Origin: Planctomycetota bacterium
GTDB lineage: Bacteria; Planctomycetota; UBA1135; UBA2386
Assembly (NCBI GenBank): GCA_965223545.1
Contig: OZ245006.1
Coordinates: 6,208,001-6,272,000 of the forward strand
Reading direction: 5' to 3'
Length of the DNA: 64,000 bases
The translations under genes were made by a program, and so were the position numbers. Below are positions 37,591 through 40,984 of this stretch, piece by piece; the stretch's first letter is position 1, and each line of letters starts with the position of its first letter. The notes under the pieces were generated by a model. That model saw only the letters and a program-made list of their open reading frames with translations. It had not been told where the DNA came from and ran no database searches.

Positions 37591-38064
37591 GTGACCCGAC
37601 TGTTCGGAATCCTGTTCATGCTCATCTTGCTTGCCGCCGGCGTCGGCTATTGTCGCGGTTGGTACACGGTGGAGGCGGCCGACGGATCGCTGACGCTGTC
37701 GCTCGACAAGGACCGGGTCAAGAACGACACCGCCAAGGCGACCGAGGCGATCGGCAACCTGTCGCGGACCGCCGCCGAGCGGATCCGCAATCTGGCGCGT
37801 CGGGTCGGCGACGGCTACTCCGAGCTGCAGGGCAACTTGGTCGCGGTCGATCCCGTCCAGCGCTCGGTCGAGATCGAGGCATCGGGCGAGGCGGTGCCGC
37901 TGGTCGTGCCCGCCGGGGTGCCGCTGATACTGAACGGTGCCGAGGTCGAGCTCGACGCGCTCCGCGACGGTGATGTGCTCACCGTGCAACTGGAGAGGGT
38001 CGCGGGTGCGGACGGCGCGGACGAGACCTTCGAGATCCGGCGCGTCCAGGTCGAGCGCCACTGA
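37591..38064 (+). CDS. Small membrane-anchored hypothetical protein
   Basis: GGAGG before GTG; N-terminal TM ending GYCRGWY; C-terminal OB-like LDALRDGDVLTV. Confidence 0.7.
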   Translation: MTRLFGILFMLILLAAGVGYCRGWYTVEAADGSLTLSLDKDRVKNDTAKATEAIGNLSRTAAERIRNLARRVGDGYSELQGNLVAVDPVQRSVEIEASGEAVPLVVPAGVPLILNGAEVELDALRDGDVLTVQLERVAGADGADETFEIRRVQVERH

Positions 38065-38382: not shown

Positions 38383-39465
38383 TCAGCGTCGCGGCTTCTG
38401 GGGGCGCGGCACCGAGGGGCGGGACGTCGGGGCGGCGTTTGGCGGCTCTTCTCGGTCCGGTTCCGCTTCCCCTCCCTTCGCCGCGGCGCGCGCTCGCTGG
38501 CGCTCGGCCTGCCGCTTTTGGCTCTGCATGTAGCCCTCGGTGCCGAACTGGACGCCGCGGCCGAGTTTGGCGTTGTTGTCGTAGTAGTCGCGGCCGTAGT
38601 CGGCGAATGCCTCGACGTCGAAGCGCTGGAACGGCACGAACGGCCGTTCCGCCAGCCGTTCGTGCACGAGCTGGTTGATCGGCTTGAGGGTATCGCCGGT
38701 CGTGCCCTGCGCGGTGGATAGGAACGTGTCGCGGGGCTCCCGCTCGCGCCGCTCCCGCTCCGCCGCCGCGTCGAACCCCTGCCACGTGCTGCGCGCGAAG
38801 GTGGCGGGTCCGTGCGTGCGCAGGGCGGCCAATTGCAGCCGGGAGTACATCTCCCGCTTGGCGGAGGCGCCGCGCGAGCGATCGCGCCACAACGCGTGCA
38901 ACGTCGTCGCCAGCTCGAGCTCCTGCGCCAAGTCGTCGGGATGCCAGAACCCCGGCAGTGCGTGCAGCACGACGCCCGACGCCGACAAGACGAAGATCTG
39001 CACGTTGCGCGCGCCGGCACCGTTGGTGGTGCCGACCGCGGGCTGGTCACAGGTGTAGCCGTGTGAGCGACCGACGTAGTCCTCGCGGGCGATGTTGTGC
39101 CAGCCGGCGACGAAGTCGCGCGCCAGCAGCGACCGCACGCGTTCGTCGGCGAGGGCGACCGCCCTCAAGCTCTGGCCCGCGCTTCAGAGGAAGCCGTCGA
39201 TGTCGCCGAGCGCCTGGATCCAGAGGACCGGCTTGCCCTGTGCCCGGCCGGCCGACAGCGCCGCGCCCAGCGAGCGGTACCAGCGCACGTCCTCGAGCAG
39301 GCCGTCGACGGCGGCGCGCACCTGCTCGCCGTTCAGCTGGAGCTTGCGGAAGGCTCTTGCCTCACGCGCCGCACGGCGCACCGCAGCCGCGTCCTGCGCA
39401 AAGGCGGTCGTCGGTAGAAGGGGCAGGAGCGCGGCAGCAGCCGCGACGATGCGGGAGGTGGCCAT
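38383..39465 (-). CDS. Exported selenoprotein-N-like thioredoxin-fold protein, putative selenoprotein (in-frame TGA 39184-39186)
   Basis: ORFs 39184-39516 and 38383-39168 are in frame; read-through gives GKPVLWIQALGDIDGFL-U-SAGQSLRAVALADERVRSLLARDFVAGWHN; signal peptide from ATG 39465. Confidence 0.8.
39149..39170 (-). promoter_or_regulatory. Candidate SECIS element
   Basis: GC-TT-GAGGGC-GGTC-GCCCTC-GC on the minus strand; loop begins 23 nt after TGA. Confidence 0.7.
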
Positions 39466-39582
39466 CGGCAAAACGCGCCTTGGCGGCGGATCGGTCCGGG
39501 GCGGAGCCCGGATCATACATCGGCGGTGGAGCCGCCGGCAGTACCGCCGATCATCTTGCCGGCCGTTCGCCGGTTTGCGGCG

Positions 39583-39936
39583 TCACTCCGATCGCAGCAG
39601 AGTGCAGGGCAAGAACTCTTCGAGGAACTGCTGGGTCGGGCCGGTGTTCGGATCGAACTCGACGCCGACGTCCCAGAGGCCGTTGTCGGTCGGCTCGGCG
39701 CGCCGGACCTCGACGCGCATGTTGTGCAGCTGATTGCCGGCGGCCACCCGCAGCACCACGCTCTCGCCGACGAAGAACCGGTTGGGTGTGCGGATGCCGA
39801 GGCCGCGGACCGACACGTTGGACACGATGCCCAGCGCGTGGTCCTCGGAGTCCGGCCGCTCGGCCGAGATCCGGGCAAAGGTCTGCTTCTCGAAGCGCTC
39901 GTCGCGCCGCCGGTCGTCGATGTGCTGAGCGTCCAT
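39583..39936 (-). CDS. Stand-alone PilZ-domain protein
   Basis: RRRDER (RxxxR) and NVSVRG ([DN]xSxxG); C-terminal VGVEF. Confidence 0.88.
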   Translation of the reverse strand: MDAQHIDDRRRDERFEKQTFARISAERPDSEDHALGIVSNVSVRGLGIRTPNRFFVGESVVLRVAAGNQLHNMRVEVRRAEPTDNGLWDVGVEFDPNTGPTQQFLEEFLPCTLLRSE

Positions 39937-40159
39937 GATGTGAACTCTTGTCTTCGCGTTCTGCCGGCGGCATCGGAAGCCGCGCAGCGGAGCTTGAGTG
40001 GGGCCGGAGGGTGAGCGGTCAAGGCGGCGCGGGCACACGGCACCGCGACGATGGGTGGCGATGCGCGAACTCCCGCTGGCGCCGGGCCGGTGCGCCACGA
40101 GCGGATGGCCACTGCCCTAAGACGCGCGCCTGCGCGGGACTGTCTCGCTTCGAGAAAGC

Positions 40160-40191
40160 CGAAGCTCGACGATTCGTGGCGCCGGACGCTC
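40160..40191 (-). repeat. Partial copy of the ~90-bp repeat, subtype A
   Basis: Reverse complement GAGCGTCCGGCGCCACGAATCGTCGAGCTTCG matches 47851-47882 at 30 of 32 positions. Confidence 0.75.
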
Positions 40192-40984
40192 AGCCCAGCT
40201 GCGCCTTGGCCTGCGCGACGCTCTGCTTGAGCGCTTCCATCAGGTTGAGGATCTTGGGCTCCTCGGGGTCGGCGACTTCGATCACCTCTTGGCCATCGAC
40301 CTTGGCCTGGATCAGCTCGGTGAGCCGCTCGACGTAGGTGTCCTCGTAGCGGCCGATGTCGAAGTCCTCGATCCGGGTTGCTTCGATCAGCGTCTTGGTC
40401 AGCTGCAGCTCGTGGTCGGGTAGCTCTTGTTCGGCGAGCTCCTCGACGAACGTCTGCGGCTGCTTGACCTTGGCCTTGTGCACCAGCACGACCATGGTCA
40501 GCAGCTTGCCGGCGGGCCGGATGGCGACCAGTTGCTCGCGTCCCGAGATCACGACTTGCGCGATGGCCTCGACGCCGGCATCGACCATCGCTTGCAGGAG
40601 CAGCGCGTAGGGCTTCTGTCCGACCGCACCGTCGGGCAGAAGATAGTAGAAGCGGCCGGAGCGGTAGATCTCGTCGATCCCACCGCGGTCGACGAAGCCG
40701 TCGATGCGGACCGAGTTGTCGCGTTCGGGCCGGAGCTTCTGCAACTCGTCGAGGTCGACGCGCACGTACTGGCCCTTGGCGTACTCGTAGCCACTGACGA
40801 TCTGGTCGCTCTCGAGCGCGCCGTGCTCCGGGCACGACTTCTGGTACTTGACCCGCTGGTTGCAGTCGGCGTGCAGCTGGTTGAGTCGGATGTCACTGCC
40901 CGACGTGGTCGCCGTGTAGCCGCGCACGGGCACGGTGACCAAGCTCAGGCGCAAGAATCCCTTCCACGTCGGTCGCGGTGCCAT
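40190..40984 (-). CDS. ku: Ku protein (non-homologous end joining)
   Basis: RPTWKGFLRLSLVTVPV, LNQLH, IVSGYEYAKGQYV, YYLLPD, NLMEALKQSV. Confidence 0.95.
   Translation of the reverse strand: MAPRPTWKGFLRLSLVTVPVRGYTATTSGSDIRLNQLHADCNQRVKYQKSCPEHGALESDQIVSGYEYAKGQYVRVDLDELQKLRPERDNSVRIDGFVDRGGIDEIYRSGRFYYLLPDGAVGQKPYALLLQAMVDAGVEAIAQVVISGREQLVAIRPAGKLLTMVVLVHKAKVKQPQTFVEELAEQELPDHELQLTKTLIEATRIEDFDIGRYEDTYVERLTELIQAKVDGQEVIEVADPEEPKILNLMEALKQSVAQAKAQLG

Follow-up and report, generated by a model that had tools for sequence, protein, structure and literature searches.

Two open reading frames on the minus strand of a 64,000-nucleotide stretch of DNA from a Planctomycetota bacterium (hereafter, the window) lie in one frame on either side of a TGA, which raises the question of whether they are a single selenoprotein gene and, if so, how its product relates to selenoprotein N (SELENON). 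The two frames (39184..39516 and 38383..39168) make up one read-through gene of 360 aa (38383..39465, minus strand) that begins with ATG at 39465, has the internal TGA as codon 94 (39184..39186, minus strand) and ends with a terminal TGA at 38385-38383. Both the DNA quoted in the original prediction and the 360-aa protein that it joins were found on the minus strand, and the claim that standard annotation misses the gene agrees with the databases, which carry the halves as separate hypothetical proteins of 93 aa (P0014) and 261 aa (P0356). A signal peptide had also been claimed; residues 1-23 (39397..39465, minus strand), with a basic start, a hydrophobic core and an A-x-A site, fit a cleavable one by inspection and hydropathy, the only grounds for this call. 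Homologues have similar N-termini, and the product is predicted to be exported.

No conserved gene neighbours were found around the family, the commonest shared neighbour occurring at only 5-6 of 39 loci, most of them with flanks of 1.5 kb; the gene had no sigma-70 promoter match, and no RNA records containing it were listed. Within the window, the upstream neighbour (39583-39939, minus strand) weakly matches the PilZ-like model TIGR02266, a Ku gene (TIGR02772, above cut-off) also lies upstream (40190-40984, minus strand), and an unmatched 157-aa ORF occupies the opposite strand (37591-38064, plus strand). The gene is also covered, with zero differences, by contigs from another sample of the same study; these contigs may be the source DNA itself. 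A short record from another study reaches the TGA, only 12 bases from the end of that record.

The internal TGA and its hairpin

In a class-wide search of 301 genomes, 78 genomes matched the protein, and an in-frame TGA was present in 55 of the 58 matches at E<1e-40, the remaining three having Cys, Cys and Ser at the Sec column. Named genome records of relatives are Planctomycetota. The survey of homologues for TGA or Cys at this column that had been proposed as a check came out in favor of a selenoprotein: among 52 translated loci, comprising 32 top hits or paralogues and 20 hand-picked loci (8 without a stop and 12 weak hits with TGA), the codon was TGA in 44, TGC in 7 and TCG in 1, and TGG, TAA and TAG did not occur. 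All 34 distinct close TGA members have the TGA at the identical column, unlike the terminal stop codons of homologues, which vary. The Sec machinery, whose absence had been named beforehand as evidence against a selenoprotein, was all present in the host genome, which encodes selA, selB, selD (itself carrying a TGA) and tRNA-Sec. Among the other TGA carriers, selA was found in 45 of 47, the two without it being genomes 73% and 81% complete; its presence gives no contrast, since it also occurs in 19 of 20 non-carriers and in 7 of 7 Cys/Ser carriers tested.

On this comparative sequence evidence, UGA at codon 94 is almost certainly read as selenocysteine. That the TGA is a true stop between two genes or within a pseudogene, or that it stands for Trp or some other standard amino acid, is very improbable, even though the halves are listed apart in the databases and two database homologues (P0021 and P0028) show Trp at the Sec column. 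The 90% cluster of P0021 also contains forms beginning just after that column, a pattern that fits a single TGA called Trp in some contigs and stop in others. Against a stop or Trp reading, the TGA is never exchanged for another stop or for the Trp codon in the loci read, as real stops are; the break falls within a single domain; the presence of the hairpin described below tracks the TGA; and the gene's own terminator is TGA, the sole tRNA with a UCA anticodon being tRNA-Sec. The original prediction had itself listed Trp or variable residues at the position as contrary signs, and here the outcome was divided: the loci read contain no TGG, but beside the two Trp proteins some homologues carry Ser, Ala or Pro (L045, P0018, P0019, P0039, P0053 and P0350, possible non-catalytic forms), so that part of the family would work without selenium or sulfur.

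The hairpin (39151..39166, minus strand) has a 6-bp stem and a 4-nt loop starting with GG, lies 23 nt past the UGA and has a folding energy of -12.0 kcal/mol. It falls within every range of the consensus model for bacterial SECIS elements outlined in PMC13188914, namely a 3-9 nt loop, a 4-16 bp stem, a G in the first two loop positions, a distance of 16-37 nt from the UGA and an MFE <= -7.5. For the Arg at U+7, 23 of the 34 close TGA members use CGG, 11 use AGG and none uses CGC, whereas CGC makes up 60% of the Arg codons elsewhere in the same 34 genes. CGG is paired with the Leu codon CTG in 23 of 23 cases and AGG with CTT in 9 of 11 (CTT background, 2%), a coupling that points to a base pair preserved by compensatory synonymous changes. 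Cys/Ser homologues, in contrast, use CGC at that Arg in 7 of 8 cases, and a centred hairpin with an energy of at most -6 kcal/mol was found at 45 of 46 TGA loci versus 1 of 8 Cys/Ser loci. Central loops are favoured by the folding window, and what counts is therefore the contrast between TGA and Cys/Ser loci; the codon and hairpin counts overstate the number of events because kin are not independent. A family SECIS register fitted 86% of cells, a level reached by none of 500 shuffles, and the same register slid by +1 scored nearly equally because distant clades have a longer loop. A register taken from the query's own hairpin was set aside, as only 55% of cells fit it. In a per-sequence synonymous-shuffle test, p was 0.02 for the query and as high as 0.53, the signal being weak for many close members. 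The SECIS-like hairpin of the original prediction was thus upheld by its geometry, its covariation and its loss in Cys/Ser homologues.

Fold and relation to selenoprotein N

The AlphaFold2 model (44 sequences; pLDDT 91.3, pTM 0.86) contains a thioredoxin-fold domain at about residues 57-194 (38884..39297, minus strand), in which Sec follows strand 1 and directly precedes the helix at residues 72-81 of the mature chain, predicted from the model to be the thioredoxin catalytic position. The closest folds are thioredoxins of the DsbD-gamma, AGR and UAS-like kinds (3f9u, Z 10.8, rmsd 2.2 over 111 residues). AGR2/AGR3 and DsbD-gamma-like proteins are the nearest solved folds, and the single active-site Cys of AGR2 aligns with the Sec column; relative to these proteins, to which it is 12-21% identical, the query has Sec for Cys, a longer active-site loop, an inserted loop and an added C-terminal domain. 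The query retrieved nothing usable from Pfam, NCBIfam or PDB sequences, and SELENON had no entry among the PDB sequence hits. Pfam Thioredoxin_7 (PF13899), which did not hit the query, matched 21 of the 30 relatives aligned (E<=0.1; best value 1.4e-5), and an Atlas search with the natural Cys homologue P0007 gave unnamed clusters first and Thioredoxin_7 at 0.81, a lead only. The C-terminal domain (residues 195-331; 38473..38883, minus strand) carries many invariant R, D, E, W, G and N among its 137 residues; when folded alone (pLDDT 84.8), it matched no family or fold, the top values being Z 4.2 and E 7.2, a result that does not establish a new fold.

The protein had been described as a bacterial SelN-like selenoprotein, and the proposed profile comparison with SELENON bore out homology of the Sec domain: HHalign of the query family against the SELENON Sec domain gave a probability of 96.5% at E 9.4e-10 over 107 columns with 25% identity and the Sec columns aligned. 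Pairwise BLAST of the query against a named SELENON (P0291) was not significant, and the close-family HMM scored 24.7 bits at most on 50 SELENON-type proteins, so the link to SELENON rests on profiles. Membership in the SELENON clade, the other part of the description, did not hold. A metagenome motif scan yielded 65 loci, among them one group with introns or low GC, a member of which retrieves proteins named selenoprotein N, and a second group of intronless, GC-rich loci with a bacterial SECIS, seven such matches also being present in Planctomycetota genomes. A profile of the upstream SELENON region, made from named SELENON proteins, hit 24 of 24 full-length-type sequences at 28-92 bits, while the query and its relatives scored <1 bit. 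In the domain tree, which kept 67 of 120 rows and has four long branches as outgroup, the SELENON-type clade (99/97) leaves out the query clade, in line with a second tree; near-copies and poorly aligned or long-branch rows were dropped, 13 of 120 in one tree and 53 of 120 in the other. As judged from profiles and trees, the query is a cousin of SELENON that is homologous in the Sec domain alone and stands outside the SELENON family.

The query shares with SELENON a Gly at U+3, an Arg at U+7, an extracytoplasmic location (predicted for the query) and a coding-sequence hairpin with its loop in the same place. The active sites differ: SELENON has the motif S-C-U-G (PMC12839072), whereas the query has F-L-U-S with a loop one residue shorter, and Cys precedes U in only 1 of 34 close TGA members. 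The spacing around U had been said to match that of SELENON, which is so downstream (G at +3, R at +7) but not upstream, where G-x6-U stands against G-x7-U. Because the upstream loop is shorter, the vicinal Cys looks deleted and not replaced by Leu; nor is the site a rare variant, as a site without C-U is the rule for the clade. In contrast to SELENON, the query has no upstream SELENON domain, only about 35 residues lying between signal peptide and domain, and no Pfam EF-hand hit at E<=10, two animal-type sequences being weakly hit; it also adds the unrelated C-terminal domain. The conserved Pro that precedes strand 3 in SELENON gives way in the query to an invariant Asn154 within the conserved loop T-T-N-G-A-G-x-R-N (39004..39030, minus strand). 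As to the type II membrane anchor of SELENON, the N-terminus of the query by inspection resembles a cleavable signal peptide.

Full-length SELENON orthologues from bacteria share the superfamily domain with the query (HHalign 95.3%) and have a SECIS of the same kind and in the same place (17 of 17), but unlike the query they have C-U, in most cases the conserved Pro, and the upstream SELENON domain. The loci in question are L112, L114, L118, L123, L126, L134, L139, L149, L162, L171, L172, L175 and L195-L201. No such orthologue was found in the genome of the window at E<=1e-8. A divergent full-length SELENON type without a hairpin, L157, is sister to animal sequences and possibly from a protist.

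Active site and possible mechanism

Most members of the query clade lack a conserved second Cys, which makes a one-selenol enzyme resolved from outside likely. At U+3 the residue is Gly, Ala or Leu, and at U-3 it is Gly in 33 of 34 members, so that neither CxxC nor UxxC supplies a second Cys, and in 6 of 34 close TGA members the core has no other Cys; the lone Sec of the original prediction is in keeping with these counts and with the rarity of Cys before U. Cys139 (39049..39051, minus strand), the sole Cys of the query, lies 45 residues past Sec94, a distance that had been put at about 43, and is shared by 13 of 34 close TGA members. Resolution of Sec by a distant Cys (Cys139 or that of a second subunit), as in a dithiol-like enzyme, appears improbable: Cys139 is in the loop inserted after strand 2 and before strand 3, and the nearest subclade often has an extra Cys at U+75, but Cys139 is absent in 21 of 34 members, and 6 of 34 have no other core Cys.

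The residue that attacks in SELENON is U428, and the mutant C427S,U428C stays bound to its substrates (PMC7474598); by analogy, the query clade would be a natural version of the SELENON trapping form without C427. We somewhat favor the view that the query is an exported one-selenol thioredoxin-fold oxidoreductase whose mixed selenenylsulfide with a partner is broken by an outside thiol. According to this proposal, the UGA, almost certainly recoded by SelB and the in-frame SECIS hairpin, supplies a selenolate; by attack on the oxidised sulfur of a specific partner, this selenolate would give the mixed selenenylsulfide, an outside thiol would then free the enzyme, and the substrate site would consist of the invariant loop before strand 3 and the C-terminal domain.

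There are lone-Sec deiodinases and peroxidases with a thioredoxin fold, and a comparable role for the query, as a small-molecule selenoenzyme or metal-binding protein (acting on a peroxide, an organohalide, or a metal or metalloid) whose C-terminal domain closes a pocket over Sec, seems unlikely but has a good deal in its favor. The lone Sec, the Asn in place of the conserved Pro, the abundance of invariant polar residues beyond the thioredoxin core and the lack of a known match for the C-terminal domain would all suit it, and the large number of paralogous clades that a genome holds hints at different ligands. The fold matches, however, are protein-directed (DsbD-gamma, AGR2/3, UAS), neither a deiodinase nor a glutathione peroxidase occurs among the matches listed, and SELENON, the closest relative to have been characterised, acts on proteins (PMC7474598). 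The chemistry of SELENON is known only from trapping mutants; with the bacterial relatives, which are small and soluble and naturally have C-U, x-U or S-C at the site, the contribution of the vicinal Cys can be put to the test.

The superfamily and a possible origin of the SELENON hairpin

A profile built from 30 diverse domains was run against 301 genomes of the phylum; one TGA was present in 133 of the 150 best matches listed, and one genome carries at least 13 superfamily copies among those 150 matches. The loci read have the TGA at the same column with a hairpin; among 33 domain hits, tandem arrays included, this was so for 30 of 30 TGA sites. Clades of the superfamily have x-U, C-U or S-C sites, and the S-C clade fills the match list (6983 hits among 8000 scored candidates), with Cyanobacteria and Acidobacteria among its named rows. 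This very large clade (P0152-P0271, L047-L052, L089-L093) is Cys-only, unnamed and without a hairpin, and it nests among C-U forms. Four TGA members in total are present in the genome of the window; the other three, each with hairpin and TGA, are L014 (C1:2993702-2994652), L015 (2580143-2580658) and L080 (6151523-6151738), and comprise one close paralogue of the x-U type, one member with C-U and a distantly related one with G-C-T-U.

Source names for superfamily members are 'hypothetical protein'. No NCBIfam model was hit by the query at E<=10, and no scanned member reached a cut-off. NF041382/NF041383 (VPGUxxT) and NF041199 (Trx7/PDZ) resemble the query in beginning with a thioredoxin-7-like domain that has Sec at the catalytic site, and they weakly match the N-termini of some relatives (best 33 bits against a cut-off of 275), but their motifs differ from that of the query. 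A SELENON-like family is absent from Table 1 of a 2026 review (119 families) and is not named in the accessible text of the deep-Sep and BSepDB papers. In the literature searched, neither the family nor bacterial SELENON is described. A thesis reportedly deals with a SELENON homologue of Poribacteria. Bacterial versions of other eukaryotic selenoproteins, SelO and SELENOW, are known already. SelN has been treated as a metazoan accretion (PMC7016017). We regard the present selenoprotein gene as real and as missed by annotation, a thioredoxin-fold representative of a clade not yet catalogued; since annotation splits genes of the superfamily, many selenoproteins of Planctomycetota probably go uncounted.

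In animal SELENON mRNA, a stem-loop termed the SRE follows the UGA, and SRE mutation leads to myopathy (PMC12839072, PMC3541580). A hairpin of -22 to -34 kcal/mol was found at 21 of 22 animal-type loci (L113-L176 range), with the centre of its loop at nt 28-29.5, numbered from the T of the TGA, and was identified from its place as the SRE. By the same count, the SECIS loop is centred at 29.5 in 17 of 17 bacterial SELENON orthologues and at 28.5-29.5 in 45 of 46 members of the query family. This positional match fits the proposal of Mariotti et al. (PMC4561486) that SREs descend from bacterial SECIS elements, at least in SPS genes, and, being in orthologous genes, would offer a direct case for a hypothesis based on selenophosphate synthetase. 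The coincidence may also reflect convergence on a ribosome-defined distance.

As regards descent, the eukaryotes (95/92) lie in a polytomy with bacterial lineages in the domain tree, and the bacterial SELENON orthologues form one clade in 0% of bootstrap trees; a nesting of eukaryotes among bacterial SELENON orthologues is suggested, though not forced by the starred branches. We tentatively propose, at slightly less than an even chance, that SELENON is an offshoot of a very large, uncatalogued, Planctomycetota-centred superfamily of which the query represents a lone-Sec clade, that eukaryotes took a UGA-bearing SELENON from a bacterium, and that the SRE descends from its SECIS.

Further arrangements of such genes were observed. 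The genome of the window contains five other thioredoxin-7-like genes in which a TGA occupies the active site (L181, L182, L184, L185 and L187; U-x-x-C types and one V-P-G-U). Two or three superfamily genes stand in tandem at L215:3259-5934, L216:1738-5555, L217-L221 and L229, nearly all with TGA and hairpin, and in L221 a Sec copy adjoins a Cys copy. At L223:2124-4310 (minus strand), two superfamily domains lie in one frame, each with C-U and a hairpin, and may form a two-Sec protein.
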